From assembly GCA_017622995.1 (NCBI GenBank), contig JAGAQA010000024.1:6272-70271 (forward strand): a stretch of 64,000 bases of DNA, read 5' to 3'. The DNA comes from Oscillospiraceae bacterium (GTDB taxonomy: Bacteria; Bacillota; Clostridia; Oscillospirales; Oscillospiraceae). Shown here piece after piece: positions 8,271 through 26,273 of the stretch (position 1 is its first letter; every line of letters begins with the position of its first letter). The notes beneath the pieces are model-generated. The model had not been told where the DNA came from. It did not search any database and saw only the letters and a program-made list of their open reading frames with translations. The position numbers and the translations under genes are program-made.

Positions 8271-10067
8271 ATGAAGAAAAAAATTCGCCTGGACGGGAAA
8301 GCAATCCTTTGGAGCCTTCCCTGGACGGCGGTTACCCTGGTTTCAGCCCTGAATCTGCGGGCGCTGAACTGGGGCGCCGACGGCGGCGGGCTCCTGGCGC
8401 ACCTGCGCTATGGACTGGTATACAATCTTTCCAGCAATGTGTTTGATTTTCTGGCGCTGTGCCTGACCTGCTTTTTGCTGGCGCTTCTGGAGACGGAAAC
8501 CCTGAGAAAGGAAAAACGGCGCTTCTTTCTGCCGGGGGTGCTGCTGGCGGTGCTGTTTGCGGAGAATACCCTGATTTTTCAGTCTCCGACGAAGGTGCTG
8601 GAAAATCTCATTGCCCTGCCCGGCTGCGGAATTCCCGAAAACCTTTTGCACTGGGTAGCCCAGCTGGGCAGCTGGTATGCCCTGAGCCTTTGCTTTTTCC
8701 GCTGGATGTCCCGCCCGATGGAAAAGGGGGAAGGGAAGGAAGCAACTGCCGGACAGTGCCTTCTTTGGGCGGCGGTGATTCTGGTTTTGTGGCTGCCGGT
8801 ATGGATGCTCCGGTTCCCCGGCTCTATCTATTCCGATACGGATGTGCAGATCCTTCAGTTTATGGGGGCGCTTCCCTGGGAGGCTTCCAATCCGTTGCTT
8901 CTGACCCTTGTGTATGGCCCCCTGTTCTGCCTGGGAAGACTCCTGGGCGGGGACAATGCAGGCATCTTTCTGTGTGTGGCGGTACAGGTTGCCCTCACAC
9001 TGTTTGCCTTTTCCTTTGCCTGCCGGGAGGTGGCCCGGGAGCGGGACAGCCGGAAAGCCGGTTGGCTGCTGTGCCTGTTCTTTGGCCTGATGCCCAATTT
9101 CCCGTCCTTTGCGGTGTCGGTACTGAAGGACTTTATCCATGCGCCGCTGTATCTGCTGTTCGCGCTTTTCCTGCGCAGATGTGCCCGGGGCGGGGAGCGG
9201 AAGGACCTGTACCGTCTGCTGATCCTGGCGGTGCTCTGCGCTGCCACCCGGAAGGGCGCCGTGTATCTGGTGGGCATCTGCCTGCTGGCTCTCGCCTGGC
9301 TGAGACTGGACGGCCGAAAGGTTCTGGTTCTGGCGGTCTGCGGCATTCTTGCGGGGCACTTCTGCCTGAATGAGTTCCTTTACCCGGCTCTGGGGGTGGA
9401 AAAACCCATGGAGCGGGAAAACTACAGCTTCTTTTACCCCATTACGGGATACTACTGCCAGAAATATGACGCGGAGCTCACGCCGGAAGAAAAGGAGATC
9501 ATTGGTTCCGTGCTGGACTATGAGACGGTGCGCACAGGCTTTTCTCCCGATGGGGTGGACCGGATCAAGGAAACCTACCACGCGGAAAACGCTGATCAGG
9601 TGCGCCGGTATCTGAAGCTCCACGGGTCCTTCTTCCTGCGCCATCCGGTGACCTGCCTGGAGGCGCTGGTGTATTCCAGAAACTATTATTTTACCCCCTG
9701 GACCACCCAGGGGGAGCGGATCACGGTGTCCATGTATCCCTTCCAGAAGCTGACAACCAAGGCAGAGAGCAATTTCCGCTACCTGCTGCCGGAGGATACC
9801 CGTCAGCATGCGGAAAACTTCCTTTGGGAAGTGATGAAGGCCCCCGTTCTGCGGGAGCTGACCGGCACCGGAAGCTATACCTGGCTGAGCCTGCTGCTTT
9901 TCGGCGCGGCGCTGTGGCAACAGGACAAAACGAAACAGATCTATCTTCTCAGTGTGGCGGTTCTGACGCTGGGCTTGCTGCTGACCCACCTCAACGGCGC
10001 CCTGCGCTATGCCAGCCCTCTGATTTACACCGCCCCGGTGCTGCTGATGCTCTACCGAACAGAATAA
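8271..10067 (+). CDS. Multi-pass membrane protein, DUF6020/GT-C glycosyltransferase-like
   Basis: Many TM helices; FPGSIYSDT..QILQ, KDF, TRKGA and LRYASPLI motifs; TTTACA-17-TATAAT promoter at 8209-8237. Confidence 0.65.
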   Translation: MKKKIRLDGKAILWSLPWTAVTLVSALNLRALNWGADGGGLLAHLRYGLVYNLSSNVFDFLALCLTCFLLALLETETLRKEKRRFFLPGVLLAVLFAENTLIFQSPTKVLENLIALPGCGIPENLLHWVAQLGSWYALSLCFFRWMSRPMEKGEGKEATAGQCLLWAAVILVLWLPVWMLRFPGSIYSDTDVQILQFMGALPWEASNPLLLTLVYGPLFCLGRLLGGDNAGIFLCVAVQVALTLFAFSFACREVARERDSRKAGWLLCLFFGLMPNFPSFAVSVLKDFIHAPLYLLFALFLRRCARGGERKDLYRLLILAVLCAATRKGAVYLVGICLLALAWLRLDGRKVLVLAVCGILAGHFCLNEFLYPALGVEKPMERENYSFFYPITGYYCQKYDAELTPEEKEIIGSVLDYETVRTGFSPDGVDRIKETYHAENADQVRRYLKLHGSFFLRHPVTCLEALVYSRNYYFTPWTTQGERITVSMYPFQKLTTKAESNFRYLLPEDTRQHAENFLWEVMKAPVLRELTGTGSYTWLSLLLFGAALWQQDKTKQIYLLSVAVLTLGLLLTHLNGALRYASPLIYTAPVLLMLYRTE

Positions 10068-10110
10068 CAAATACCGCCCCTTTCGGGGCGGTCCAATAAA
10101 ACAGTTTAAC
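10061..10110. repeat. attL of the integrative element
   Basis: aataacaaataccgcc-CCCTTT-cggggcggtccaataaaacagtttaa; core CCCTTT (10078-10083) is repeated at 26254-26259, and the inner arm is inverted relative to attR. Confidence 0.85.
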
Positions 10111-10140
10111 AATTGTTTTCGGGAAACGGCATGATTTCGG

Positions 10141-12086
<1,946 letters not shown>

Positions 12087-12122
12087 AAAAATTATCCTTT
12101 CATTTTTAGTGATGGGGAAGGA

Positions 12123-13598
12123 TCAGATTTCCTTCTCTTGTTTTTGTGTGGGAGCATTGATTTGTATGGGCTCAATATTCTTTCGGGCGGTATCGATATG
12201 GGACTTGATTTTCCAAAGAGTCTGGGACTCTGCTCGGATTGCTTTGAACTCACTGTAGGTTGCATCGTGCTGCTGTTCCAGTGCTGCATAACGGCTCTGG
12301 ATTGCTTTGCTGTTGTATTTACCGTCGGGGAAATACTTGGTCAGCAGCCGATTGGCAGCATAGAACTGATTCAGTTCTGCCTTGTGCTCGGCTTTATATT
12401 TCTCCTTGGCTTTTGTGAATTTGATGCTGCGTACTTTGTCCGCAACAGGCTTCAACCGCTTGTAAGTATCCCAGGCATCCGGAAGTTTCTGAAGATCTTT
12501 CATCTCTGTGGTTTGGATATCCAGCTGCGTTTTCTTTTCATCCACGATGCTGCGTCTCTCGGAAATAAAAGCTTCCAAAGATTCCACATCGGTGATGCCA
12601 TTCTCCTGCAGGAAAGTGATGATCTCGCTGAGTTCCTTCAGGTTGTTGGCTCTGGCTTTTTGGCTGTAAGCGCTGGCATTGCGCTGATTGAAGTAAATCT
12701 GTAGCAGCGAAATCAGATCAGGAGTCTGGGGCTTGCTCAGTTCTTCCTTTGTTTCTTTCAGCCAGTCCAGCAGAACGGCAATCTTCTTCCGGATACTCTG
12801 GATCAGCCCATTGGTAGCCTTGATCCAACGGTTGAACTCACCTTTGTCGGTGCGTATACCCTTGGCTTCCATTTGACGGACAGAAGGACCTTCATGGATG
12901 GTAGGAAGAATATCCACACCCTGTCGTTCATAGCTGCGGTGGTCAATGCGTTCTGGTAATCCCTTTTCCTCAAACTTGGCATTGCACAGAGCTGCCCATT
13001 GCTCCCGCCAGTATTCAAGCGTTTCCGGACTGCCCCAGTCGGTTGTGGGAACTGCGTTGAAAATGTAATTACCCTCAGCATCCAGAAGACGTATTCCGTT
13101 TTCATCCAATTCATAAACACGTCGCTGCTTCATGCCCCATTTTCCGTTTCCCTCGATGGGGCGAATTGGAGCCATCACATGAAAATGGGGATTGGAGATT
13201 CCGCCAGGTTCTGTGTCCGGAACATGAATAGCGAAGTCTACCACCATGCCCCGACTGACAAAATGCTCCAATAAAAACTGCCTTGCAAGGGCGATGTTCT
13301 CGTCCAGGGAGAACTCATTTTGCAAGGCAATGTCAAAGCTGTATGCCAGCTGGGCTCGTTTACCCCGCTCGACTTTTTCTACGGCATTCCAGAGAGTCTG
13401 TCGGTCAGCATACTCCCTGGGAGCGTGAGCAGGCAGCAGGATTTCGGAAAAGATCACACCATGCTTCTTTGTGTAATCGGATGTCTCGCCGTAGTATTCG
13501 CTGTATAGTTTTTCTCCGGCCCGGTAAGCGGCGGCAGCGATGGCAGACTGTCCTTTGCTCCGCTTAATCTGTGTGACATTCAGATGAAACAGTGCCAA
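12123..13598 (-). CDS. MobA/MobL (MOBQ) relaxase
   Basis: ALFHLNVTQIKRSKGQSAIAAAAYRAG, DFAIH..NPHFHVM and IDHRSYERQG motifs; TTG start after AGGAGG. Confidence 0.92.
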   Translation of the reverse strand: MALFHLNVTQIKRSKGQSAIAAAAYRAGEKLYSEYYGETSDYTKKHGVIFSEILLPAHAPREYADRQTLWNAVEKVERGKRAQLAYSFDIALQNEFSLDENIALARQFLLEHFVSRGMVVDFAIHVPDTEPGGISNPHFHVMAPIRPIEGNGKWGMKQRRVYELDENGIRLLDAEGNYIFNAVPTTDWGSPETLEYWREQWAALCNAKFEEKGLPERIDHRSYERQGVDILPTIHEGPSVRQMEAKGIRTDKGEFNRWIKATNGLIQSIRKKIAVLLDWLKETKEELSKPQTPDLISLLQIYFNQRNASAYSQKARANNLKELSEIITFLQENGITDVESLEAFISERRSIVDEKKTQLDIQTTEMKDLQKLPDAWDTYKRLKPVADKVRSIKFTKAKEKYKAEHKAELNQFYAANRLLTKYFPDGKYNSKAIQSRYAALEQQHDATYSEFKAIRAESQTLWKIKSHIDTARKNIEPIQINAPTQKQEKEI

Positions 13599-13908
13599 TA
13601 GGCGGTTCCTCCTTTTCGTGATTTTGAATTGCGGACTGGATCGCCTGCTGGACACTGGGCAGGCAGAGAATGGTTTCCATCAGCTCATTGACTTCCGGAA
13701 GTGTCAACTTCTTGATATCCGGTGCGATACTCTCAATCGTTCCGGCAATGGTGCAAAGACGGTGGGTGCGTTTCTTCCGATCAGCTTTTTCGTAATAAGA
13801 TTTGCGGTTTTCCAGCCGCTGCTGATTATGCTGAAGCTGTTGCAACTTCTGTTCCACGCTGGCCTGTTCTTCTTGGAGCTTTATTAGCTCCGGGTTAGAT
13901 TGATACAT
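13564..13908 (-). CDS. DUF3847-like relaxase accessory coiled-coil protein
   Basis: RLENRKSYYEKADRKKRTHRLCTIAGTIES, typical of the small gene preceding MobA/MobL. Confidence 0.75.
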   Translation of the reverse strand: MYQSNPELIKLQEEQASVEQKLQQLQHNQQRLENRKSYYEKADRKKRTHRLCTIAGTIESIAPDIKKLTLPEVNELMETILCLPSVQQAIQSAIQNHEKEEPPIGTVSSECHTD

Positions 13909-14105
13909 AAAATAAACCTCCTTTGATTGTCGTTTTGATGAAAGAAATAGGGAACAAATATGGTTCGTCAGAACCGTGTTTGTTCCCTATTTGGGCAAGG
14001 ATAGATGCGAAGCATCGCAAGGGGTGCAGCCCTTTGTACGGAACGCAAGTGACGCATCCCAGTTCAACATTCGGATGTTGTAATCGGGGCAGCTCCGCAG
14101 GACGC

Positions 14106-14143
14106 ACTACATGGTCACTGACCATGTATAGAAGTGCGCCCTT
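14106..14143 (+). promoter_or_regulatory. MOBQ-type origin of transfer (oriT/nic)
   Basis: Inverted repeat tacatggtca-c-tgaccatgta followed by GAAGTGCGCCCT, matching the RSF1010-type nic consensus AAGTG^CGCCCT. Confidence 0.8.
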
Positions 14144-14492
14144 AGTTCCTAAGGGTTTTCTCCCATGCTTCTCCATTTTTCGCTTTCTCTCGCTTCTTCC
14201 CATCGTATTTACCCCACAGGCCGTTTTCTTTTGCCCATCTCCGGGCATTGCTTCTTCGTTCCTCACTGTACGGAGCTGTCAACCGGATGCTGATTCTATC
14301 TTTGGCAATGTCAAACCGCAGACCGCCCTGTTCATCATCCTCGGTAAGCTGACAAAGCTGCGGATATTTTTCTGCGTATTCCAACAGCCGCCGCTTCAGC
14401 TTCGTATCGTGGGTGTAAATCTCAGCCATGGGGTCTTTTGCGTTGTAATAAAGCTCCGTGACCTTCTGCTTTTTCGTAAGACCTGTTTTCAT
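14142..14492 (-). CDS. Conserved hypothetical protein of clostridial mobile elements
   Basis: YNAKDPMAEIYTHDTKLKRRL...GGLRFDIAKDRISIRL; AGGAGG RBS. Confidence 0.7.
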   Translation of the reverse strand: MKTGLTKKQKVTELYYNAKDPMAEIYTHDTKLKRRLLEYAEKYPQLCQLTEDDEQGGLRFDIAKDRISIRLTAPYSEERRSNARRWAKENGLWGKYDGKKREKAKNGEAWEKTLRN

Positions 14493-14643
14493 GGAATTTC
14501 CTCCTTTTTTCGTAGATTTTTCCCGGCTCTTGAATTGGGAAAGAGGGGTGATTTTCTGACAGAAATGCTTCGGATGATGCCCAGGTCATTCAATACTGTG
14601 CTATTCGTTGATTCCTGCATTTTCTCAATTCAAGACCGTATTT

Positions 14644-14844
14644 TTACTTGGGTCTGTTGGTGTGGCTGTTCAGCCATTCCAGCAGATCCTTTTTCATCAC
14701 CATTTTCCGTCCCCCGACCCGCAAAGTCGGGAAGTCAGAATGGTTCAAAAGTGCGTAAGCGCCGGACTTGGAAATCTGCAAAGCAGACGCAAGCTGTTCT
14801 GCGGTTATTACATCCGGCAAGCTAGAAAACATCTCATTTGCCAT
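14644..14844 (-). CDS. Excisionase-like helix-turn-helix DNA-binding protein
   Basis: LPDVITAEQLASALQISKSGAYALL...FPTLRVGGRKMVMK (HTH_17-type); GGAGG RBS. Confidence 0.8.
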   Translation of the reverse strand: MANEMFSSLPDVITAEQLASALQISKSGAYALLNHSDFPTLRVGGRKMVMKKDLLEWLNSHTNRPK

Positions 14845-14913
14845 AGTTTTTTCCTCCTTTCTGCATGAAAAAACAGCAGCCACAAAATGTGACTGCTGTC
14901 TAACAATGCGTGT

Positions 14914-15858
14914 TTAGTTGCTCGGTTTGTCCAGATATTTTTGGTATTCCCCGGTGACAAAATCCTCGTAGATGCTGGCAATCTTTGCAATGCGTTTATG
15001 GACAGCACTGGCGGTTTTATAGCCGACCTTGTCCGCAATTTCCTGCTCCGTATGTCCCAGCATCCGAAGTCGCAGGATCTCCTGATCTTTATCCGTCAGC
15101 GTTGACTTTTTGAATGCTTCAATCTGATTTTCGTCCATGATGTCTTTCTCAAATTCCGCCCGGGGATCTGCGATAGCTAACACAGAACCGTCTTCGTTTT
15201 CCATCATCTTATCAAGAGAGATGGATCTTCCGGAACGATTGTGATGCCACTTGCGCATGAAGTCGTTCTTTGGAACACTGAACTTATCATCGTAATCTTC
15301 CGGAGAACGCATTTCCCATGCTGCATCGATTACCGGCTGCCATTGCTGTTCAATAACGATCATGTCTGTCAGATTGCCCACCAGATTTCCAAACTGCTGA
15401 TAGGTCAGCCAGGGAACTTCTGTGCCCATGGGTATATTGTAAAGATTCTGAAATCCTAAGCCATGGGTTTCCAACTTCATTCTCATGTAGGGAATGATCG
15501 CATAAGAAAGCTGCCAGATGGGAGAGTAGCCTGCATAGTTTGGTCGACTTCCCGGAATATCTCTGTAATTTCCGTTGCGTCCCTTCACCTGGAAGAACTG
15601 CCATGCTGCCCAGGAACAGCTGTCCCAAATCAGCAGCTTCATCATGTCGTCTTTCACAATGCGGTCATACTTGTCCGTCCGCAAAACTTCGTAGGGACAG
15701 CGGGGAATTTCCAGAGCGGCGGGGAATTTTTCCACCAGTTCCTTTGGCAGCGCATAAAAGAGTGTCAGCCAGGATTTATCGTCATCCTGCGGGATTTCGA
15801 TGATCTCTCCGGGTAGCACTACGATAAATCCTTTCGGCCCATTACGGGATTCTGTCAC
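14914..15858 (-). CDS. Sigma-70 region-4-containing regulator with an unknown N-terminal domain
   Basis: C-terminal LTDKDQEILRLRMLGHTEQEIADKVGYKTASAVHKRI; GTG start after GGAGGTG. Confidence 0.7.
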   Translation of the reverse strand: MTESRNGPKGFIVVLPGEIIEIPQDDDKSWLTLFYALPKELVEKFPAALEIPRCPYEVLRTDKYDRIVKDDMMKLLIWDSCSWAAWQFFQVKGRNGNYRDIPGSRPNYAGYSPIWQLSYAIIPYMRMKLETHGLGFQNLYNIPMGTEVPWLTYQQFGNLVGNLTDMIVIEQQWQPVIDAAWEMRSPEDYDDKFSVPKNDFMRKWHHNRSGRSISLDKMMENEDGSVLAIADPRAEFEKDIMDENQIEAFKKSTLTDKDQEILRLRMLGHTEQEIADKVGYKTASAVHKRIAKIASIYEDFVTGEYQKYLDKPSN

Positions 15859-16062
15859 GTTATTTCACCTCCTGATTTTAATAGTAGAGTTACCCCCCTA
15901 CTATATATGGCATGAGAAAGGCCAAATTGTTCCAATGTTTCTAAAAATTTTTCATAATTTTTTTGAAGCCAATATCTGCAATCATTATAGCGAAACTTGG
16001 AAATCATATCCAGTCGAAAAGTGTGGATAAAAATTGAACTTTCTGTATCTGTCCATCAAAAG

Positions 16063-16100
16063 AAATAAGGCGGTGACCGGGATGGTCACCGCCCCTATTT
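16063..16100 (-). terminator. Terminator after the giant surface-protein gene
   Basis: aaataaggcggtgacc-ggat-ggtcaccgcccctattt. Confidence 0.7.
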
Positions 16101-16129
16101 GTTCCCAGGACTAAAACAGCTTCTTCAAA

Positions 16130-19100
16130 TTAATGTATTCTTTTCTTGTTATCAGTCAAAAGAATTGCCACACCAAGAACACTTCCACACAGGATACTGC
16201 TCCACAGCACAAGCTGGAAGTCGTCTCCGGTCTTGGGGTTGGTGGGGTCTGCTTTCGCAGTGCTGATTTTCTTGAAGGTTGCGGTTACGGTCACATCAGC
16301 ATCAGGCATGGTGAAATAGTATTTGCCGTTATTGTCTGTGCTGACCACATAGGATTTGCCAGCAGCATCCTTCACGGTCAGGGTAGACAACTTGTAACCG
16401 GACTTGGGAGTTACTGTAATGGCAACTTCTGTTCCTTCGGCAGCTTTGCTGACATTGGTGGTCACAGAGCCGTTGGTGGTATCCGCAATCTTTACGTTGT
16501 GCTTCTGCTTCACGGTCAGCTTACCTGCAACATAGGCGATGCTGTAGTTGTCACCAGCCTGAGCATTGCTGGGAGTAATGGCATAGTCGCCAGGCTTGCT
16601 CATATCAACAGTACAAGTCATGGTGGGGGCTGTGGTCAGTTTGTCAGTCCCCTTCAGACCGGTGACAGTGTAAGTAAAGGCAGGCTTAGCATCACCCTCT
16701 ACAGCGGTCTTATCTTCCGCAGTAATGGTCACAGCAGCCTTGGCAATGGTGAAGTTCAGCGTGGTCTCACCGGCGAGGGTCTCGTGGGTTTCCGGAATGG
16801 TGATCTTCACGCTGTAGGTACCGGCATTGGTGGGCGCGGTGGTGCTGGGGCCATAGGTGGTGTTACCGGTGCCGGTGTAGATCACATCAAATGTTCCGGT
16901 ATAACCCTGCACTGCGGGAGTTCCGGTGTAACCAGCCTGCGCGTTGCCGGAATAGGTCAGACCGCTGGCTGCGGTGACACCGGTAATAGTTACTGTTGCC
17001 TTGTTGGTACGCTTGACGGTGATGGTGGCATTGGAAACGGTGAAGTTGTCCGTGGTGAAGGAAATGGTGATGGTACCGAAGCTGCCTTCCTCACTGTTGT
17101 TCATGCTCCGGACCGGCACAGACAGAACGTCGTCGGTGATGGTCGGTGCTGCGCTGTTGTAGCCCTGAAGGTCATAGGCCGCAACTGTATAGGACACATC
17201 ACCATAGCTCTTTCCGGTTTCCAGAGCGGGCAGCAGTTCAGCCAGATCCACGTTGTAGGTCTTTGCCAGACGGTTGGTGATGGTCAGTTCACCATTTTCT
17301 GCGGTGGCGCTGGCTTTGGTGATGTTCACGGTGACACCGGTGGGCTGTGCAGTCAGCGTGTAGTTGGCAGCGTCAGCACCATCCAGCGCAACGCCGGTGA
17401 TGGTGACGGCCTTGCCGTTGCCCACATTGGCATCTGCAGTGTTAGCAACTGCTTTGCTCAGGTCAACAGAAACAGTATCGCCGGAAATCACGCCATTCAC
17501 AACGCCGCCGGTCAGGGCTACCACGGTAGTGCCGTTGTATGCACGATTGGTGGCAGTGATGCTGGAAACAGTGACTTCCTTGGGAGCAACAGCAACGATC
17601 AGATTTACTTCCACGGTGCTGTAGTTGGACGTATCACCGGGTGTGAAGATAGCGGGGAAGGTGTTATTGCCATTCACATCACCAACGGGGGTATTGCTGG
17701 CCTTCCATGCCCAACCAGTGGGCAGGGGGATGCCTGCCAGAGTCTGACCATAAGTTGCAGTCAGGCCGGTGGGGGTAGAGTAGCTGGGCTCAGCCTTACC
17801 GATGCTCCAGGTCTTGGTTGCCGTGCCGGTGAAGTTACCGTTGCCGGTAACGGTCAGGGTATAGGTTCCAACATTGGTGCCGGTATTGCCGGAGATGGTG
17901 TAGTCATCGACTACCACATCGCCAACCTTGATTTCTGTCACTGTCTGGTTCTTCTCTTCGCCGGTATAGGTCAGAGCGGCACCCAGGGTGATGGTGGCAC
18001 CGGTGATGTCCCGCTTGGAAATGGTAATGGGATTGCTGGTCACACTGGAAGCTTCGGTATTTGCAGTCTCCGCAATGGAAGCCACCACATAGTAGGTGCC
18101 AGCATCCTTGGGTGCGGCAGTCAGCTTGTTGGCTTCGTCCACAGAATCCTTGTACCAGGTGAAGGTCACATCGGCGTAGGCTGCGCCGGAGATGGTCAAC
18201 TCACCTTCGGTGGGATTTGCCAGAGGCTGAGCGTCATAGGTCTTGCCGGGGGCATATCCATTATAGGTGATGGAGGTGTTGGCCTTATTGATAATCAGGT
18301 CACCATCCGCATAGGAAATTGCGTAGTTGGTGGTCACGTCCTTGTCGCCGTTCTTGATCACGGCATTGCTGGGCGTGATTTTACCATTGGTGGTGGCATT
18401 GGTGGTGCTGGGAGTCAGGGTCGCGGTGATGCTGTGACCATCGATCAAACCGGTATTCGTAATCTTGGTGCTGTCCAGAACTTCGCCATAGGTAATCTGC
18501 TGATTATCTGCCTTGATGGTTAACTCCTTTTGGTTGACGGTATACTCTGCGGAAATGATCTTATCGGTATCCACGGTCAGGCTTGCCTTGTAGATGCCTG
18601 CATCAGTGGGAGCAGTGGGAGTTGCGGCGTTCCAGGTATCGCCGTCCTTCTTCTGATACTGAATCAGGTCGGACAGATTCGTGAGATCACCAACGGGTTC
18701 TGCGGTCAGAGCTGCGGTCTTTGCCGTGCCGTCATAAGTGGCATTGGATGCGGAGATGGTCACGGTGCCGCCAGCAGTGTTGGGGCAGCTGCTGTCCCCA
18801 TTGGCGCAGGTTGCGGTGATGGTATCCTTTGCCTCGTTGACGGAGTAAGTCCAGCTGTGCACATGAGAAATCACAGTAACTTCCTTGGTCTTGCTGAGGG
18901 CATTGCTGGTTGCCTTAACGGTCAGCTTGGTGCCATTGGGAACGTTTACGGGAACGGTCAGTTTGCCGTCTGCGCCGATGGTTACACCATCATGGCCGGT
19001 AACGCTCCAGGTAACCGCGGATGGTACGGCTGCGCCGTAGATATCCTCACCGGTGATGGTGTAGGTGCCGGTCTGGGGTTCGGTCTTGCCGGACAGGGAG

Positions 19101-22100
19101 ATGCTGTCGGGGCCGGTGATCTCACCCAGCGCGGTCAGGACACCGACGTTCGCCTTGGTCAGGGTGATTTCGATTTCACCGGTCTTATCGCCGTAGGTGG
19201 CAGTGGCCTTGATGGTGCCTGCAGCCGCTTCGGGAGTAAGGGTAATAACGTTGCCCTCGATGCTGACACCGGTGTAATTCTCTGCCAGATTCCAGGTGGC
19301 ATCCTCGGTCACATCCACATCTTCGCCGTAGGAATAATCTGCCATAGCAGTCAGAGTGACAATCGTGGAATTATCCTTAGTGGGAACGGCCACGGAGCCG
19401 GTGGAATCGGCGGTGACGGTAATGCTGTTCAGCACATTCTCAATGATGTAGGTGACGCTGATTTCTGCCGTGCCTAGTGTGATAGTTGCGGTGTAGGTAC
19501 CAGGATTCACAGGTTTGCCTTCAATCAGACCGTCACCGGAGTAAACCACGGTATGTTCGGGAGTCAGATTATCCGTGACCTTGGCTTCGATGGCACTGCC
19601 GGTGTAAGACACACTGTCGGGAACAGCAATGCTGATGCTGCCGCCATTGGTATCGGGGCAGCTGCGGTCCTCATTGGAGCAAATTGCGGTAATGGTGTCG
19701 CCGTCAGCGGAGTATTCCCAATCATGGCTGTGTTCTGGAATATTAAATTGCAGTTCCTTAGTTCCGGTATAGTTACCTTCGCCAGTGATTGTCATGGTTG
19801 CAGTGCCAGGCGTGGTATTGTTAGCATATTCAAGGGTATAGTCGATATCCTTTACAAGGGTCATACCGTTATACTGAATGGTAACATCGGGTGTAGCCAC
19901 ACCGCCGATCAGAGGATAGCTATCCTCTAAATCGTAAGTCAAATCTCCGATATCCTTGGCTGCAATGGTGAGCGTAACGGCCTCTCTGCCATTTCGCAAC
20001 ATGATCGTCTTCTCGGTGTAATAGTCGCTCTCCGCAACACTGATCGAGATGGCATAGCTACCCACGTCGGTAGGAGGCGTATCACTGTTGTTATACAGAA
20101 CCTTAACTGCGCCAACATATGCAGCTATCGTGTCCACAGGAGTAACCGTTACGGACTTCGATGTTCCGTCATAAATAACGGTGGTGGCAGAATCGTAAGC
20201 AAAATCTGCATAAGAAAGAGAACCTTTGATAATCTCAAACTCACAGCTTGCAGTTGCCGTTCCAAGCGTAATGCTTGCAACATAAACACCGGGAGCAAAA
20301 GGTGTTGCTACTTCGTCCGTGGATTTCAGCGTGTAAACAATTTCGGGAAGTACGACATCTTCAATCGTACCGGAAATTGTCGCGGCTTTAACTGCATTGT
20401 TGAAAACCAATCCCCCTCTTCCACTGGACGGCGCTTTAATTGTAATGCTCTGTTCCGGATCGCCACACGCACCGTCTGTATTTGCGCAGGTTGCGGTAAT
20501 GGTGGCACCTTCTGCAGAGTATTCCCATTCATGTTTATGATCGAAAACTACTCTGAGATTCTCTTGTAAATAATCCACCGTCGCATCTACATTGTTGTTA
20601 TCATCATCTACAAATTTATATCCTTCTGCTAACAAACCGGAGAGAGGATAACCACTTAGAGAAGTACTGCGAATACCATTAATAAAGTAACCGCCGGACA
20701 AGGTGATTTTTGAAGTGTGATAAGATGCTTGTCTGTATATTGCATACAGGCCACCATCAAGTGTACCGCCACTGATGATTATCTCGGAATTTGCATCCTC
20801 GACCTGAATTGCATTTAAGGTAGATTTGAGCGTTCCTCCGGTCATCACAAAGGTGCCTTCAACGTAGTTGCATTGATAGTTTCCTTCCACAAAACCGCTA
20901 TTCAGAGTGAGCTTTGCACCTTCCGTAATGCTATGCTGATAAGTAATCAGAAGTTTACCCGCCTGTTCTGATGTACTATCCTTGATGGTTAAATCTGCAT
21001 CAGAGACATAGTATAGACTTTTGATCGTCGCAGATTTGCCGTTTAGGTCGAGTGTGATTGCCTTTGCAGGGAAAAATATAGTAGCATCGCTTGTTGAATC
21101 GGCAGTTAACTTCATTTCAACCGCATCACTTCCGGACAGATTCGTGACATATTCGACTGCCGATATAATGTCCTTATAATGAGTTGTGCTTCCGTTTACG
21201 GTTACCGATACAACAGCTACATACGCATCGCATACGGAGCAGATGCCTGTTGCAGCATCAAAGGTACACGCATCTGTAAGCGTCAAGTTGCACTCCGTGC
21301 AAGTGTATGTATGCTGACAATTTGCAGTTGTATACTCGGTGTGCGTGCTGCCTGCATGGTCGCAAACTGTCACGGCACAAGTTGCGGTATACTCTCCGTC
21401 CTTAGTGGTGACGGTGATGGTAGCTGTGCCTTTGCTTACGCCGGTAACAACACCGTTTACAACCGTTGCTATCGAATTATTATCAGATGTCCAAGTAACA
21501 GTTTTGTCATTAGCGTGTTCGGGAGTTACGGTTGCAGTCAAAGTGACAGTTTTACCAACACCCACAGTTGCGGTTGTTGGATCAATTATTATGCCCGTGG
21601 CATCAACGCCAAGAGCATTGCTACCATTATAGAATACGGGATGCGTATCAGTGCCGATTGTCTGTCCCCAAACAAGCTCAAGATTTTCTGCTTGTAAGAG
21701 TCTTGCAACAGTTCCGTCGGAAAATGCGGTTGAGTTCTTGCTGGTTGCATTTGAATCCGTGCCCTTACCGCTTAGGAAATAGCAGTTTTTGATAGTTCCT
21801 GAGGATTTGTAGGCAATCGCCTTGCTGTAGGTCGAGTTGCCGGTTGATATCGTTCCGCTGTTAAAGCAATTCGAGACCGTTGCGTTGCTCTTCAAACAAC
21901 CGGAGATGCCGCTTACATACCAACTCGTAGAAGAGCCGCCCGAAACTGCTCCGGTGTTGTAACAGTTGTTGATGGCTGCTCCGTAGGATAGTCCTTCGAT
22001 ACCGCCAACATAAACCTGGGCACTTGAACCTGTATTTGTGCTTTTTACAGTTCCGGTATTATAGCATTTTGAAATCAGGCTTTCGCCATAACCGGAAATA

Positions 22101-24100
22101 CCGCCAATGTTTTTGGGACCGGAAATGGTTCCGCTGTTGGAGCAGTTTACAATACCGCCTTTAGATTTGCTAGAAGTTGTGTTATATCCGCAGATGCCGC
22201 CTGCAGAGTCAGTACTTGCCGTCACATTGCCGCTGTTGGTACAACCTTCAATTTTGCCGTTTGCTTTACCGATTATACCACCAACATACGATTTCGAAGA
22301 AACATTACCAGTGTTTGTGCAGTTGGAAATCACTGCCGCTGAATTGTTAAGCGTTGCGCAAATACCACCAGTTCCGTTTGTTCCGTTACCTTGAATCGCA
22401 CCTGTATTGGTACAATTTGCTATCTGTTTTTGTGACGCACCAAACGAACCACAGATACCGCCTGTATATATTTCACCGATTGTATTTAAATTGCCATTAT
22501 TTTGACAGTTTTCAATATTACCGGTACAGTATGCTGCAATGCCGCCTGCATAAGCGCTACCACTTGAAATAGAAATGGTAATATTTACGTTGTTCGTACA
22601 ATTATAAAAAGATCCAGTAGAGCGAGCGCAAATACCTGCACTACGAGCTGCGGTAGATGAATATGTACCGCTGACGGTGAGATTTTTGATCGTACCGTTC
22701 TCAAGGTATCCAAACAAAGCGGCCGACTTGTGGGTAGTTGAAACGCTGTTAAGACCGCTGATGGTTTTGCCGTTTCCGTCAAAGGTGCCCTTAAAACTTG
22801 CGTATTGTGAAGCGCTTGAACCGTCGTAGTAACCTATCGGCTCCCATGTGCCCCCCGAAATGTCGATATCGTTGCCGAGTTTGTAATGCTTGCTGTAATA
22901 CGATGAGTTTTTGTTATTTACAAACCACGCCAAATCAGCAAGCTGCTGTGCTGTTGTAATAATATAAGGGTCTGCTTCCGTACCGCTGCCCGTCCAGGTG
23001 ATCGTGGGCTTGCTGGTAGGATAAGCCCAGGTGTCCAGCATATCTGCAACACCCAGATCTACTTCCAGTTTCAGGGTGGAAACGCTTACACCCAGAGCAT
23101 AGCCCTCAGGCAGAATAGCTTTCAGTTCGTAAGTACCCTGTCCCTCGCCCTCAGTGGGGAAGGTTTCGCACTCCCACTGTACAGGGATTTCCACTTCTGT
23201 GCCGTCCACCATAGCAGTGATGGCAGAGGGCAGGATGGACTTCAGGGTTTCCCAGTCTGCTGCATTAGGCAGGGTTGCGTAGGTGCCGTCCTCGGAGAGA
23301 ATCTCATATTCATCTACCCAGCTCCATGCGGTGATGGTCAGCACCACAGGCTCCGGGACAGGCTCATCCATGCCGCAAACCTTGCACTTTCCATCCAGAT
23401 ATTCTGCATGGGAGCAGTCTGCACCGCAGGCATCGCACTTGCCGTCGGCATCGGTGCCGTAATTGTGGGCTGCCAGCTCGCCATAGGCAGTTTCGCATTT
23501 TTCGCAGATGGCCTGATCCTTACAGGTAGCCGTGCCACCGGAATGGACGCAAGGCTCTGCTGCGCCGCAAACAGTACACTTGCCCTCGGTATACTCTGCG
23601 TGGTTACAGATTTCACCGCAGCCACATACGCCATCGGTATAGGTATGGGCATGGGGTTCTGCTGCACCGCAGACGGTGCACTTACCCTCGGCATACTCTG
23701 CATGGACACAGACAGCGCCGCAAACTACGCATACACCGTTTTCATAGCTGTGAGCTGCCAGTTCACCATAGGCTGCAGTGCATACTGCGCAAACCGCCTG
23801 TGCTTTGCAGGTAGCTTCGCCACCGGTATGAGCAGCCAGCTCACCATAAGGCTCACCGCATTCGTCGCAGTTAGCCAGAGCGGTACAGGTTGCCGTACCA
23901 CCGGAATGCTGACATTCCTCTGTCACGACAAGCTGGGCCAGATTACAAACAGTGCAGATTCCCTCTGCATTGTAAGTACCCTCGCAGCCCTCAGTGACAG
24001 TACAGGGATCGCCCTCCGCTGCCAGCGCAGGCATGGGCACATAGGACAGTACCATGCTCAGAACCAGCAGGAAAGATAGGATCTTCTTCATGTTTCTCAT
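16130..24100 (-). CDS. Giant (2656 aa) sortase-anchored surface protein/adhesin
   Basis: Signal peptide MKKILSFLLVLSMVLSYVPMPALA; Cys/His repeats; Ig-like domain; GLUG-type GSGTEADPYII/GGICG repeats; Big_2; MBG/YDG-like stalk; C-terminal NPKTG plus TM plus KKRIH. Confidence 0.88.
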   Translation of the reverse strand: MRNMKKILSFLLVLSMVLSYVPMPALAAEGDPCTVTEGCEGTYNAEGICTVCNLAQLVVTEECQHSGGTATCTALANCDECGEPYGELAAHTGGEATCKAQAVCAVCTAAYGELAAHSYENGVCVVCGAVCVHAEYAEGKCTVCGAAEPHAHTYTDGVCGCGEICNHAEYTEGKCTVCGAAEPCVHSGGTATCKDQAICEKCETAYGELAAHNYGTDADGKCDACGADCSHAEYLDGKCKVCGMDEPVPEPVVLTITAWSWVDEYEILSEDGTYATLPNAADWETLKSILPSAITAMVDGTEVEIPVQWECETFPTEGEGQGTYELKAILPEGYALGVSVSTLKLEVDLGVADMLDTWAYPTSKPTITWTGSGTEADPYIITTAQQLADLAWFVNNKNSSYYSKHYKLGNDIDISGGTWEPIGYYDGSSASQYASFKGTFDGNGKTISGLNSVSTTHKSAALFGYLENGTIKNLTVSGTYSSTAARSAGICARSTGSFYNCTNNVNITISISSGSAYAGGIAAYCTGNIENCQNNGNLNTIGEIYTGGICGSFGASQKQIANCTNTGAIQGNGTNGTGGICATLNNSAAVISNCTNTGNVSSKSYVGGIIGKANGKIEGCTNSGNVTASTDSAGGICGYNTTSSKSKGGIVNCSNSGTISGPKNIGGISGYGESLISKCYNTGTVKSTNTGSSAQVYVGGIEGLSYGAAINNCYNTGAVSGGSSTSWYVSGISGCLKSNATVSNCFNSGTISTGNSTYSKAIAYKSSGTIKNCYFLSGKGTDSNATSKNSTAFSDGTVARLLQAENLELVWGQTIGTDTHPVFYNGSNALGVDATGIIIDPTTATVGVGKTVTLTATVTPEHANDKTVTWTSDNNSIATVVNGVVTGVSKGTATITVTTKDGEYTATCAVTVCDHAGSTHTEYTTANCQHTYTCTECNLTLTDACTFDAATGICSVCDAYVAVVSVTVNGSTTHYKDIISAVEYVTNLSGSDAVEMKLTADSTSDATIFFPAKAITLDLNGKSATIKSLYYVSDADLTIKDSTSEQAGKLLITYQHSITEGAKLTLNSGFVEGNYQCNYVEGTFVMTGGTLKSTLNAIQVEDANSEIIISGGTLDGGLYAIYRQASYHTSKITLSGGYFINGIRSTSLSGYPLSGLLAEGYKFVDDDNNNVDATVDYLQENLRVVFDHKHEWEYSAEGATITATCANTDGACGDPEQSITIKAPSSGRGGLVFNNAVKAATISGTIEDVVLPEIVYTLKSTDEVATPFAPGVYVASITLGTATASCEFEIIKGSLSYADFAYDSATTVIYDGTSKSVTVTPVDTIAAYVGAVKVLYNNSDTPPTDVGSYAISISVAESDYYTEKTIMLRNGREAVTLTIAAKDIGDLTYDLEDSYPLIGGVATPDVTIQYNGMTLVKDIDYTLEYANNTTPGTATMTITGEGNYTGTKELQFNIPEHSHDWEYSADGDTITAICSNEDRSCPDTNGGSISIAVPDSVSYTGSAIEAKVTDNLTPEHTVVYSGDGLIEGKPVNPGTYTATITLGTAEISVTYIIENVLNSITVTADSTGSVAVPTKDNSTIVTLTAMADYSYGEDVDVTEDATWNLAENYTGVSIEGNVITLTPEAAAGTIKATATYGDKTGEIEITLTKANVGVLTALGEITGPDSISLSGKTEPQTGTYTITGEDIYGAAVPSAVTWSVTGHDGVTIGADGKLTVPVNVPNGTKLTVKATSNALSKTKEVTVISHVHSWTYSVNEAKDTITATCANGDSSCPNTAGGTVTISASNATYDGTAKTAALTAEPVGDLTNLSDLIQYQKKDGDTWNAATPTAPTDAGIYKASLTVDTDKIISAEYTVNQKELTIKADNQQITYGEVLDSTKITNTGLIDGHSITATLTPSTTNATTNGKITPSNAVIKNGDKDVTTNYAISYADGDLIINKANTSITYNGYAPGKTYDAQPLANPTEGELTISGAAYADVTFTWYKDSVDEANKLTAAPKDAGTYYVVASIAETANTEASSVTSNPITISKRDITGATITLGAALTYTGEEKNQTVTEIKVGDVVVDDYTISGNTGTNVGTYTLTVTGNGNFTGTATKTWSIGKAEPSYSTPTGLTATYGQTLAGIPLPTGWAWKASNTPVGDVNGNNTFPAIFTPGDTSNYSTVEVNLIVAVAPKEVTVSSITATNRAYNGTTVVALTGGVVNGVISGDTVSVDLSKAVANTADANVGNGKAVTITGVALDGADAANYTLTAQPTGVTVNITKASATAENGELTITNRLAKTYNVDLAELLPALETGKSYGDVSYTVAAYDLQGYNSAAPTITDDVLSVPVRSMNNSEEGSFGTITISFTTDNFTVSNATITVKRTNKATVTITGVTAASGLTYSGNAQAGYTGTPAVQGYTGTFDVIYTGTGNTTYGPSTTAPTNAGTYSVKITIPETHETLAGETTLNFTIAKAAVTITAEDKTAVEGDAKPAFTYTVTGLKGTDKLTTAPTMTCTVDMSKPGDYAITPSNAQAGDNYSIAYVAGKLTVKQKHNVKIADTTNGSVTTNVSKAAEGTEVAITVTPKSGYKLSTLTVKDAAGKSYVVSTDNNGKYYFTMPDADVTVTATFKKISTAKADPTNPKTGDDFQLVLWSSILCGSVLGVAILLTDNKKRIH

Positions 24101-24135
24101 AGGCTTATTCCTCCTCGGGAAGATATAAGAGAGGC

Positions 24136-24390
24136 TTACGCCTCAGATTTTACATAGTGGTCAATCAGTTGTGCTCTGGCTGCCTCCGAAGTCACTTCCT
24201 CCGGTGCTCCTGTCAGATAGCGCAGGGCATCATTCCAGACAGAAAAGGGATAGGTTTCGGGCGGTATGGATTCCAGCTTCTTAGCCAGACGACCCTGCTG
24301 ATCCGAATTTACATTTCTCAAATCGCTCAAGAAAGCACAGCCTGCGCTCTCTGCCAGCAGATCAAGCAAGGATTTTCGTTTTTCGGTCAT
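24136..24390 (-). CDS. Small hypothetical protein (84 aa) directly upstream of the giant gene
   Basis: ORF with LLDLLAESAGCAFLSDL, 36 nt before the adhesin start; weak RBS. Confidence 0.6.
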   Translation of the reverse strand: MTEKRKSLLDLLAESAGCAFLSDLRNVNSDQQGRLAKKLESIPPETYPFSVWNDALRYLTGAPEEVTSEAARAQLIDHYVKSEA

Positions 24391-24421
24391 AGAACGACAT
24401 CCAATCGTCGAAAATTTTTAT

Positions 24422-24525
24422 GGGATCAATAGATCCTATAAAGGAAGGGCGCCCTTCCTTTATGATGGTTTGACAGCCACTTATCCTGTTAGTGAGCCTA
24501 ACAGGATAGAGGGGTACCCCTCTAT
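24422..24525. repeat. Cluster of five near-abutting palindromes/hairpins in the 5' leader of the adhesin operon
   Basis: ggatc-aata-gatcc; perfect 26-bp ATAAAGGAAGGGCGCCCTTCCTTTAT; tggtt-tgac-agcca; tatcctgttag-tgagc-ctaacaggata; perfect 20-bp ATAGAGGGGTACCCCTCTAT. Confidence 0.85.
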
Positions 24526-24575
24526 TTTTGCAGATGGACATAATAAGGCATAATACCCTATATTATATCGATAAT

Positions 24576-24604
24576 ATTATACGGTATCAGAATACCAAAT
24601 GCAA
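24576..24604 (-). promoter_or_regulatory. Sigma-A promoter of the small-ORF/adhesin operon
   Basis: Minus-strand TTGCAT-17bp-TATAAT; the spacer contains the palindrome GGTAT-tctg-ATACC. Confidence 0.65.
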
Positions 24605-24612
24605 TTACACTT

Positions 24613-25155
24613 TTAATTATTTTCAATTTTTTCACTTGCATTTTCTGCTGCCACACTTTCAGGCATATGGAAAATATCTTTCTCCGCTATCGTTCCGGCG
24701 GTATACTCTAGAACACAACTGTATTTGGGTGAAACAGTCCAGCAAAGGTAGGTCAGTCCATCTAATTCCCCCTGTACGCCACACCAACTGCCCACTTTGC
24801 AATCGCTGCGGTTTTCAAGGGTGCCAATGTCCACCGCCATATCCAATGCTGTCTTGTTCAGTCCTTCAAGTTCAGATGGTTCCTCGTTGAGATAGGTTGT
24901 GGTACAGCAGTAATAGTTGATGGATACATTGTTAGGACCCTTTATCACAAAGGGTCTTACTTCGGAGATGGATTCCAGTTTCCAATCTTCGTCCACTTCC
25001 TGCAAGGCCGACTGAACCTTGTCTATCTCCTTCGCCGCCTGCCAATATGGATTTTGTTCTCTCCGATAGATTCTATATCCCCACACGATGCCTACGGTGA
25101 TGGCGATCATGGAAATGCAGATAATGATTGCAAATAGAATCTTTTTCTTGGTCAT
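24613..25155 (-). CDS. Hypothetical membrane-anchored protein
   Basis: N-terminal KKK plus TM helix and an acidic soluble domain; ATGA-type overlap with the upstream SLOG gene. Confidence 0.65.
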   Translation of the reverse strand: MTKKKILFAIIICISMIAITVGIVWGYRIYRREQNPYWQAAKEIDKVQSALQEVDEDWKLESISEVRPFVIKGPNNVSINYYCCTTTYLNEEPSELEGLNKTALDMAVDIGTLENRSDCKVGSWCGVQGELDGLTYLCWTVSPKYSCVLEYTAGTIAEKDIFHMPESVAAENASEKIENN

Positions 25156-25634
25156 TCTAAGTCCTCCAAAGGATCATTAAGGTTGATGCGGGGAATACCT
25201 TTCCGCTTTGCGTATTTCATGGTCTGCCATGCTCCGCCGCTTTCATGCTGGACGAAGAAAACAACAAGATCAGAGCGGTCAACCATTTCACGGTTCCTTG
25301 TTTGGTAAGCTCCCTTAAAGTGGCCGCCAGCAGCGGCTCCGCAGATTTCTATTTCATCGTAGTAATCCCGGTAGGCATCCTCGTTGTCCCGGAAGTCTGC
25401 CGTTGGGTATGGCAGCACCCAAACATGGGCGCAGTTATCATCCCGGATCGTGCGCTTGCAGCGGCAAATGGTGGAGGAAACTATCTGGTCAAATTCTCCG
25501 TCCCTGCCTACCAGGAACTCCACATATTCATGTTCCCGCAACAACGTTTGTATGAGCTTGTCCAACCTGCCTTCAATTTCCAATGCATTTTTAATTATGC
25601 GATGTCCAAAGAAGCTGACGGTAAGTGTATTCAA
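25152..25634 (-). CDS. SLOG-superfamily (YpsA/DUF1273-like) protein
   Basis: VSFFGHR, FLVGRDGEFD, VLPY, RNREMVDRSDLVVFFV, SGGAWQTMKYAKRKG; TTG start after AGGGGA. Confidence 0.75.
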   Translation of the reverse strand: MNTLTVSFFGHRIIKNALEIEGRLDKLIQTLLREHEYVEFLVGRDGEFDQIVSSTICRCKRTIRDDNCAHVWVLPYPTADFRDNEDAYRDYYDEIEICGAAAGGHFKGAYQTRNREMVDRSDLVVFFVQHESGGAWQTMKYAKRKGIPRINLNDPLEDLE

Positions 25635-25755
25635 CACGCTATCCCCTAACAATTAGTATACTTGCGTTTATCGTTAAAATTATACGACATAAATGATTAA
25701 ATATCAACGATTTGTCGAAGTATAATTTACGAAGAATACAAGCAAAGGGGTGAGT

Positions 25756-26064
25756 GTGGTGAAGGATATTCTTGCTACCATAACAGAATACCGGGCAGAA
25801 AGAGGATGGACGGAGTATCAGCTTGCAGAACACTCTGGCTTGCCCCAGTCTACAATCTCCTCATGGTATCGTAAGAACATGGTGCCAACAATTCCATCCT
25901 TGGAGAAGATTTGTTCTGCGTTTGGGATTACACTGTCCCAGTTATTTGCCGAAGGCGATGCACCTGTTTCGCTGACTGAATCTCAACGAAAACTGTTAGA
26001 TCGTTGGTCGAGGTTGAGCGAGGAGCAGCAGTCTGTGGTTTTTGCTTTGATCGATAAAATGTAA
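25756..26064 (+). CDS. XRE-family helix-turn-helix regulator
   Basis: RGWTEYQLAEHSGLPQSTISSWYRKNMVPTIPSLEKICSAFGITLSQLF; divergent from the SLOG gene. Confidence 0.88.
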   Translation: MVKDILATITEYRAERGWTEYQLAEHSGLPQSTISSWYRKNMVPTIPSLEKICSAFGITLSQLFAEGDAPVSLTESQRKLLDRWSRLSEEQQSVVFALIDKM

Positions 26065-26065
26065 A

Positions 26066-26113
26066 AAATCCGCCAGTACCGGCACCGTAAGGTGTGCCAG
26101 CACTGGCGGATTT
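26066..26113 (+). terminator. Hairpin after the XRE gene
   Basis: aaatccgccagt...actggcggattt. Confidence 0.6.
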
Positions 26114-26230
26114 CAATCACAATTTGATTTGGATAAAAGAAAAACAAGCGATACCTCGTTCATAATGAACCAGATATCGCTCATTTTTGCTCTTGCACCC
26201 TGCTTGGCAGCTACCCTATGTCGGTAGTTT

Positions 26231-26273
26231 TTATACTGTCTTATTGGAAGCTACCCTTTGGGCGGTATTGTTA
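26231..26273. repeat. attR of the integrative element
   Basis: ttatactgtcttattggaagcta-CCCTTT-gggcggtattgtta; the inner arm is inverted to the attL arm and the outer arm is complementary to the host sequence left of attL. Confidence 0.85.

Follow-up and report, generated by a model that had tools for sequence, protein, structure and literature searches.

The window analysed here is a 64,000-nt stretch of an Oscillospiraceae bacterium genome (GenBank assembly GCA_017622995.1, contig JAGAQA010000024.1, positions 6,272 to 70,271 of the forward strand). Its minus strand carries a two-gene operon, in which a promoter, P1, is followed by a leader of ~180 nt, the gene of an 84-aa protein (P0001), and the gene of a 2656-aa surface adhesin (P0003). 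The operon is cargo of a 16-kb integrated mobilisable element (10061-26273) of the serine-recombinase/MOBQ kind. The features of the promoter, the leader with its hairpins hpA to hpE, and the two genes are as follows.

24576 to 24604, minus strand: promoter P1, TTGCAT-17-TATAAT (TTGCAT at 24604-24599, TATAAT at 24581-24576), a match to the sigma-70-type consensus.
24553 to 24587, no strand assigned: operator-like dyad over the -10 box, ATACCGTATAATAT, 7 nt, ATAATATAGGGTAT; layout 14-7-14, symmetric at 12 of 14 positions.
24506 to 24530, plus strand: hpA with a TTTTT run; 20-bp perfect palindrome, ATAGAGGGGT joined to ACCCCTCTAT (24506-24525).
24482 to 24508, minus strand: hpB, 11-bp arms around the asymmetric 5-nt centre GCTCA; at -16.1 kcal/mol the most stable of the hairpins.
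24470 to 24480, minus strand: unpaired linker GTGGCTGTCAA, kept in the comparison of leader types.
24438 to 24463, minus strand: hpC, 26-bp perfect palindrome, ATAAAGGAAGGGC joined to GCCCTTCCTTTAT, flanked by TTTAT on both strands.
24423 to 24436, minus strand: hpD, small stem GGATC-TATT-GATCC.
24395 to 24410, minus strand: hpE (cgac...gtcg), weak stem around the Shine-Dalgarno region of the 84-aa gene.
24136 to 24390, minus strand: 84-aa gene; product cytosolic, slightly acidic, predicted to form five helices, of an unnamed family.
16130 to 24100, minus strand: gene of the 2656-aa surface adhesin, with signal peptide, Cys-rich repeats, and C-terminal sorting signal.

The initial annotation of this DNA had described the minus-strand promoter with its ~180-nt leader, and a tight row of hairpins including two perfect palindromes of 26 and 20 bp. 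The promoter is present as it was described and is conserved in relatives, and the hairpins lie at or within 1-2 bases of where they had been placed. The initial annotation had missed that the -10 box lies inside the 14-7-14 dyad. The predicted transcription start of P1 is at ~24569, and a simple promoter scan flagged overlapping sites at 24590-24562 and 24598-24571. In related loci, which bear L numbers, P1 is kept with its 17-nt spacing as TTGCTT/TATACT (L010), TCGCAT/TATATT (L009), and TCGATT/TATATT (L073). Transcription most likely starts at this conserved promoter. The dyad is perfect in one group of related leaders, type B below (L010, L014, L015, and L074), where it reads ATACCGTATACTAT-N7-ATAGTATACGGTAT; it may be bound by a protein.

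The leader is strongly structured. Over 191 nt it folds at -65.4 kcal/mol, compared with -42.6 ± 3.8 kcal/mol for dinucleotide shuffles (z = -5.98), and none of 200 shuffles folded as well. When the hairpins are folded singly, hpA (z -3.6), hpB (z -7.2), and hpC (z -3.5) are significant and hpD (z -2.5) is marginal. The last stem, hpE, which had been counted as a sixth hairpin, is present with a z of -0.84, which is not significant. A G+C-rich stem followed by a U-run, the hallmark of an intrinsic terminator, is found in hpA alone and on the plus strand only, antisense to the operon; a terminator scan flagged it there with the stem 24510-24523, the tail ATTTTTGCAG, and -14 kcal/mol. No U-run adjoins hpB on either strand. 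The folding energy of hpC is -14.5 kcal/mol in the sense and -15.7 kcal/mol in the antisense direction, its tail is merely UUUAU on either strand, and the scan did not flag it. It may be a weak terminator- or attenuator-like stem that is the same in both reading directions. The earlier statement that the hairpins lack U-tracts is half true, since hpA carries TTTTT on the plus strand and hpC carries TTTAT on both.

Known RNA classes and repeats do not account for the leader. An Rfam cmscan of 23500-25500 at E ≤ 10 returned only chance-level hits to mir-1421 (16.7 bits) and PhotoRC-I (14.6 bits), the gathering scores being 45, so that a riboswitch, a T-box, or another known RNA was rejected, in agreement with the initial annotation. 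A repetitive extragenic palindrome or a miniature inverted-repeat transposable element was rejected as well, because the leader and each palindrome occur once in the 2.5-Mb genome. No second lox-like partner site for hpB was found in the whole genome. The hairpin sequences are absent from viral contigs, and hpA occurs in one metagenome contig. A 59-aa open reading frame (ORF) across the hairpins (24362-24541) was considered as a leader peptide and dismissed; it has no ribosome-binding site, and its frame is closed in type B leaders.

We then compared the leaders within the closest subfamily of small-gene relatives, where covariation rests on few independent sequences. Three leader types were found. 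The type A leader, present in the window and in L077, has the order P1-hpA-hpB-hpC-hpD-hpE. The type B leader (L010, L014, L015, and L074-L076) has the order P1-hpA-hpB-hpE and is missing hpC and hpD. The type C leader (L016-L020) has another promoter, TTGAAA-17-TATACT, followed by hpC-hpD-hpE. L009 and L073 contain further variants. The only hairpin that the three types have in common is hpE, the stem at the ribosome-binding site. The linker GTGGCTGTCAA has the counterparts GTGCCTG in L010 and L009 and CTGTCAATAC in L016, and is apparently the junction between an hpA/hpB module and an hpC/hpD module. Judged by this comparison, the hairpins are separate, exchangeable modules (hpA with hpB, hpC with hpD) and not one common fold.

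The individual hairpins vary in different ways. hpA has its T-run on the plus-strand side in all three of its versions (TTTTTG, TTTCTTAT, and TTTTTTG). In hpB, two stem positions are altered in both arms between the window type and the L010 type, which makes two compensatory pairs, and pairing survives double changes in three versions (ATCCTGTTAG, ATCATGTTTG, and TCATGTTATGTG); L073 has a different, 12-bp version. hpC has 25 of its 26 bases in common in elements that share only ~55% identity in their small proteins. In L016-L020 it follows another promoter and carries one G-U change, and in L009 it has one extra pair per arm and the centre GGGTACCC, a symmetric change from GCGC to GTAC. In L077, hpC has a bulge and a mismatch, and the small gene is still intact. 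hpD is a stem of 4-6 bp with variable loops in L077, L009, and L016. hpE has one compensatory change in L010 (ACGG/CCGT) and is broken in L009 and L077. L077 itself is a Logan contig whose small protein is 95% identical to that of the window; the centre of its hpB is reverse-complemented, with TGAGC for GCTCA, and the arms are kept. This is evidently a minute hairpin-loop inversion of the template-switching kind.

Most homologues lack such a leader, because their small gene follows an inverted repeat by 10-40 nt or else overlaps or directly adjoins the gene before it. The proposal that homologues of the 84-aa protein carry covarying leader hairpins therefore fails: most have no leader, and the closest relatives have separable modules.

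The 84-aa ORF is a real gene, as had been supposed. Positions SLL, C, LSDLR, and WN.AL.YL are invariant among its 14 close homologues. When 1.84 billion representatives were searched with a profile, 990 clusters were retrieved at E ≤ 1e-3, and 270 at the stricter E ≤ 1e-10. Members are concentrated in the order of the window and occur in 18 of 401 species genomes there, compared with 1 of 400 others sampled across the phylum. None of 47 scanned members matches Pfam, searches of NCBIfam and PHROGs with the 84-aa protein also came back empty, and every named member is annotated as hypothetical. The AlphaFold2 model of the 84-aa protein is confident (pLDDT 82) and has five helices. Foldseek found no match for it (best E 1.9 against PDB and 0.56 against BFVD), and a profile search of PDB sequences with the small-protein family gave a best E of 0.41. 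A structure-derived function was given up on these grounds, despite the confident model.

The downstream gene encodes a protein with Glug, Big_2, MBG, YDG, and Flg_new_2 domains in addition to its Cys-rich repeats. Its C-terminus has an NPKTG sorting motif, then a hydrophobic stretch, and finally a basic tail, as expected of a cell-wall-sorted protein. The 84-aa gene ends shortly before the adhesin gene, as first described, with a spacer of 35 nt rather than the 36 nt given. We measured the linkage of the small gene to large genes in species-representative genomes of the order, using nine evaluable strong hits (E < 1e-13) and counting same-strand ORFs that start within 1.5 kb downstream. An ORF of at least 1000 aa follows in six of the nine, compared with a baseline of 2.2% in the window's genome (P ~9e-9), and one of at least 700 aa follows in seven of the nine, compared with 6.9% (P ~2e-7); these P values ignore relatedness, and the hits stem from different genera. 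In three independent loci, L004-L006, a large surface protein is encoded downstream of the small gene, and the partners are Cna_B/DUF7601, LRR_5/YDG/MBG or SLH proteins, sortases, and DUF4379 zinc-finger proteins. Members of the small-gene family show strong linkage to giant surface proteins of the SLH or sortase-anchored kind, which bears out the suggestion that homologues precede giant surface genes. In one locus, L053 (G103:C4), the small gene and a gene for a 1484-aa SLH/Glug protein lie ~660 nt downstream of groEL, with no recombinase and no inverted repeats, a context that looks chromosomal rather than mobile. A literature search found no paper on DUF4379-linked adhesin operons, and a paper on the Faecalibacterium mobilome mentions neither adhesins nor sortases.

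The giant partners have unrelated domain sets (Cna_B, SLH, LRR_5, MBG/YDG, and Glug), and several genomes have two or three paralogous small-gene loci, with three each in G103 and G199. Both features point to a general role in expression or state rather than to a domain-specific chaperone. From its position, the 84-aa protein would be a partner of the giant gene in expression or phase state, perhaps as a first-gene regulator like PapB or UpxZ, perhaps as a cytosolic helper of the giant precursor. The wider proposal that the family comprises new-fold first-gene regulators of giant surface-protein operons in Gram-positive gut anaerobes, a counterpart of PapB or UpxY/UpxZ, is speculative and we hold it rather doubtful. 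If it were true, the small protein would be made once the promoter fires or a switch is ON, and would then lock the switch, silence paralogous adhesin loci, or pass RNA polymerase through attenuators such as hpC.

Many relatives of the operon stand behind a different kind of promoter region. In about one third of the genomic occurrences, a ~280-aa tyrosine recombinase and a promoter segment flanked by inverted repeats lie directly upstream of the small gene. The recombinase matches Pfam Phage_integrase with E values of 1e-25 to 1e-27. The repeats are 16-35 bp long, and the left arm abuts the recombinase stop codon. In L004 (4190-4447), L026, L048, L049, L051, L052, L057, L060, and L064, the small gene or a pair of DUF4379 and small genes begins 10-40 nt past the right arm. 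The segment between the repeats measures 224-258 bp in this L004-L064 set and 206-330 bp over all loci examined, including L095-L106. Each repeat arm is itself palindromic, with an asymmetric spacer of 4 nt in the middle (ACAGAAT-CAAC-ATTCTGT is one example), and in this respect resembles a lox or FRT site. Searching one family at the DNA level located the 3' end of the recombinase with the repeat in 26 of 164 genomes, and the repeat pair was present in all 12 loci fetched. The segments carry an extended -10 promoter and terminators, and drive operons that encode DUF4379 proteins, small proteins, sortases, and giant surface proteins. Specifically, the extended -10 element (TGnTAnAAT) is antisense and 53-77 nt from the left repeat in seven loci, and sense and ~67 nt from the right repeat in two; in L064, TTGCAC-17-TATAAT is oriented toward the operon. 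The segment of L098 aligns better to the reverse complement of those of L099, L051, and L057 than to their forward strand. By this layout, the segments of the relatives are fimS-like promoter switches, seen in both orientations across genomes. As a general class, invertons close to surface genes in gut bacteria have been described before.

The window is built differently. A scan for flanking inverted repeats gave a sole match of 19 nt and 79%, inside coding sequence, and a second scan found none. No tyrosine recombinase was found near the leader, the only recombinase being the large serine integrase at 10141-11871. Across 16 near-identical contigs or assemblies, identity of the leader is 100%. 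An inverton in the window was thus rejected, there being no flanking repeats, no recombinase, and no orientation variants among the 16 assemblies. As the leader has no switch parts and is invariant in these assemblies, P1 is a fixed promoter and not a switch.

We then inspected the remainder of the element. Its ends were read, with the CCCTTT core and the rebuilt host hairpin visible, and its genes include the large serine recombinase with DUF4368 (the integrase named above), a MobA/MobL relaxase, and DUF3847. The features that flank or subdivide the operon are as follows.

25750 to 26064, plus strand: divergent Xre-family helix-turn-helix (HTH) regulator, HTH_3, E 1.9e-10.
24613 to 25652, minus strand: two genes that form a unit upstream of the leader, one for a SLOG/DprA-like protein of 166 aa (25152-25652) and one for a membrane protein of 180 aa (24613-25155).
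24131 to 24144, minus strand: small stem GAGGCGTAAGCCTC, overlapping the 84-aa stop codon and within the 35-nt spacer.
16058 to 16095, minus strand: strong intrinsic terminator at the end of the operon, with the stem GGGGCGGTGACC...GGTCACCGCC and then TTATTTCTTTT, found by reading the sequence.

The small stem in the spacer is terminator-like, with five pairs and the tail TCTTATATCT; the tail is not the same in L003. The 166-aa protein matches phrog_289 and phrog_768. Its 180-aa partner is a single-pass membrane protein whose stop lies at 24613, and the pair is also found upstream of the leader in L010, L015, L074, and L078-L091. A sigma/anti-sigma pair was considered for these two genes and discarded, the 166-aa protein being SLOG/DprA-like instead. 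An HTH_3 gene holds the position equivalent to that of the Xre regulator in L010, L079, L083, and L084. We infer that this regulator is a candidate binder of the P1 dyad. Three elements were compared for an operator motif that their divergent Xre promoter regions might share with the P1 dyad or hpE, and none was consistent. Immediately beyond the adhesin terminator, a gene at 14914-15858 on the minus strand encodes a 314-aa protein with no Pfam match. It has a C-terminal sigma-70 region-4-like HTH, which rests on weak NCBIfam matches to sigma-70/extracytoplasmic function models, and is a possible element-encoded transcription factor.

A candidate MOBQ-type origin of transfer (oriT) lies at ~14105-14150 on the plus strand, upstream of the DUF3847 and MobA/MobL genes, and consists of the repeat ACATGGTCACTGACCATGT followed by GAAGTGCGCCCTTAG. 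After the repeat, ATAGAAGTGCGCCCTTAG at 14131-14145 (plus strand) has two mismatches to the MOBQ nic core TAAGTGCGCCCTTAC. This is likely the oriT of the element. hpC was also tried as an oriT and rejected, as its centre GAAGGGCGCCCTTCC has three mismatches to the nic core, a resemblance at chance level (three matches in the window, and at least three in 12 of 100 shuffles), and the better site adjoins the relaxase genes. In L082 (1-1252), a DDE transposase (DUF772/DDE_Tnp_1_2) stands in place of the upstream membrane-protein gene, the element being otherwise identical. This insertion sequence lies just upstream of P1 and ends ~229 nt short of the small gene, so that neither P1 nor any part of the leader is disrupted. 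In type C loci (L016:~1000-1560 and L019:1-640), the operon belongs to an element that has inserted at tRNA gene 3' ends and lies ~450 nt from the edge of that element; the element end, TGGTCCCAAAGAGCGGTC..., is joined to two different tRNA flanks.

Taken together, we favor a modular leader of a fixed-promoter adhesin operon in which the hairpins act singly, an explanation to which we give about an even chance. The invertible switch of the relatives would be replaced in the window's element by a fixed promoter under repressor control through the dyad, with the neighbouring Xre protein as the obvious candidate. The stem-loops would work one by one and not as a single folded riboregulator. Specifically, hpA would keep antisense transcription out of the promoter and the genes upstream of it; hpC, and perhaps also hpB, would be leaky attenuators or insulators and mRNA-stabilising stems for the 8.3-kb message; and hpE may merely frame the ribosome-binding site. 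The small protein would act on expression or phase state and would not be a binder of these hairpins. The hairpin array by itself does not appear, on present evidence, to be a new RNA class. The idea of a dedicated expression module for giant genes, put forward in the initial annotation, is partly supported, by the linkage of the small gene and not by the hairpins, which are confined to the closest relatives and modular.

Several observations weigh against this explanation. Neither a scan nor inspection found an antisense promoter that hpA could block. The tail of hpC is just UUUAU, and hpB has no U-tract on either strand. The palindromes of hpA and hpC are perfect through their centres, and the hpC centre of L009 is altered symmetrically; since an RNA loop does not need symmetry through its centre, this fits a DNA-level dyad or template-switch repair better. 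In addition, the 16 contigs have identical leaders and hence offer no fine-scale variation for judging selection.

The same symmetry is what a DNA-level explanation starts from, namely that hpA, hpB, and hpC are operators bound by dimeric proteins of the element (Xre, the 314-aa protein, or the 84-aa protein), forming roadblocks or cruciforms between promoter and gene. hpA and hpC are perfect at their centres, L009 combines its symmetric centre change with one added base per arm, the promoter itself lies within a dyad, and the arm-spacer-arm layout of hpB is like that of a recombinase or repressor site. However, half-site spacing differs in L009, by one extra pair in each arm, and in L077, by an indel in one arm, and a fixed dimer should not tolerate such differences; the change in L016 retains a G-U pair in the sense RNA only. 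Moreover, the 84-aa protein is acidic with no HTH or other fold match, no site has a second copy in the genome, and the operators at the divergent Xre promoter (window, L010, and L015) have no motif in common with the hairpins. We consider this explanation unlikely, though the foremost of the alternatives.

Next comes the likewise unlikely view that the palindromes are functionless relics at recombination junctions of mosaic elements, either old terminators of former neighbours or quasi-palindromes that template switching has made perfect, retained as passive passengers. When DNA hairpins mediate template switching, flipped loops and perfected palindromes are what typically results. The leader mosaics break between hairpin modules, such that type A resembles the 5' part of type B joined to the 3' part of type C at GTGSCTG/TCAA; the orientation of hpA is wrong for the operon; and L077, with its flipped hpB centre and damaged hpC, has an intact gene. 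Relics would not be expected to behave as the stems of hpB and hpC do, however. The former stays fully paired through several double changes in three sequence versions, the latter is nearly unchanged between distant small proteins, and both suggest selection.

Quite improbable is a concerted cis-regulatory RNA, in which the array modifies RNA polymerase in the manner of EAR or put, or is bound by the 84-aa protein, for reading through hpC and the 8-kb gene. A structured leader precedes a very long gene here, with a small conserved gene in between that is linked to giant genes, and hpC could be an attenuator to overcome. On the other hand, Rfam at E ≤ 10 gives no match, the stem at the ribosome-binding site is the only hairpin shared by the three leader types, a leader is missing from most family members, an alternative antiterminator pairing is not apparent, and the 84-aa protein has no known RNA-binding or NusG-like fold. 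The processive-antitermination RNA first proposed for this leader is not supported, with no Rfam match, no shared fold, and nothing else pointing there. Hairpin stacks are typical of antisense-regulated leaders, and a countertranscript modelled on prgQ/Anti-Q of pCF10 and RNAIII of pIP501, which would start in the region of the ribosome-binding site and hpC, include the complement of hpB, end at hpA with its U-run, and pair with the sense leader, suits hpA as a good plus-strand terminator directly after hpB with a conserved U-run, yet is very improbable because the scan flagged no plus-strand promoter between 24391 and 24500 (the best by inspection being TTTTTA-16-TATAAA, 8/12) and inspection of type B leaders found none there either.

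To our knowledge, the control of giant wall-anchored proteins, the main adhesins of abundant gut Clostridia, is almost unknown. About 1000 clusters of unnamed small proteins travel with giant surface-protein genes, and many of the relatives' operons stand behind recombinase-driven invertible promoters, while the mobilisable element carries a fixed-promoter, hairpin-laden version. The small protein, the switch, and the single hairpins offer testable handles on phase variation and on the horizontal spread of adhesion traits.

Among known systems, EAR of B. subtilis and put of HK022 have only one likeness to the operon, a structured leader before a long transcription unit; the hairpins of the window differ in being modular, with no Rfam match and no fold kept across homologous operons. 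In pCF10, the prgQ-IRS1/Anti-Q region before prgB likewise combines a mobile element, a promoter, a small ORF, and terminator-like repeats, followed by a large adhesin. The operon differs in that no peptide-pheromone ORF, PrgX-type regulator, or antisense promoter was found, and in that its small ORF encodes a folded 84-aa family. In the systems of PapB/PapI (E. coli pili) and UpxY/UpxZ (Bacteroides capsule), a long surface operon likewise begins, right behind its switch or promoter, with the gene of a small cytosolic protein, and the presence of several paralogous loci per genome is a further likeness. The 84-aa protein has no sequence or fold similarity to these proteins, and its putative regulatory role is read from its position. 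The window differs from fimS and cwpV in having no adjacent recombinase and no flanking repeats, and its leader is invariant in 16 assemblies. In contrast, relatives of the operon share the layout of recombinase, inverted repeats, and promoter with fimS (FimB/FimE), with the C. difficile cwpV switch (RecV), and with gut invertons; and what is regulated is, as with cwpV, a wall protein of very large size.

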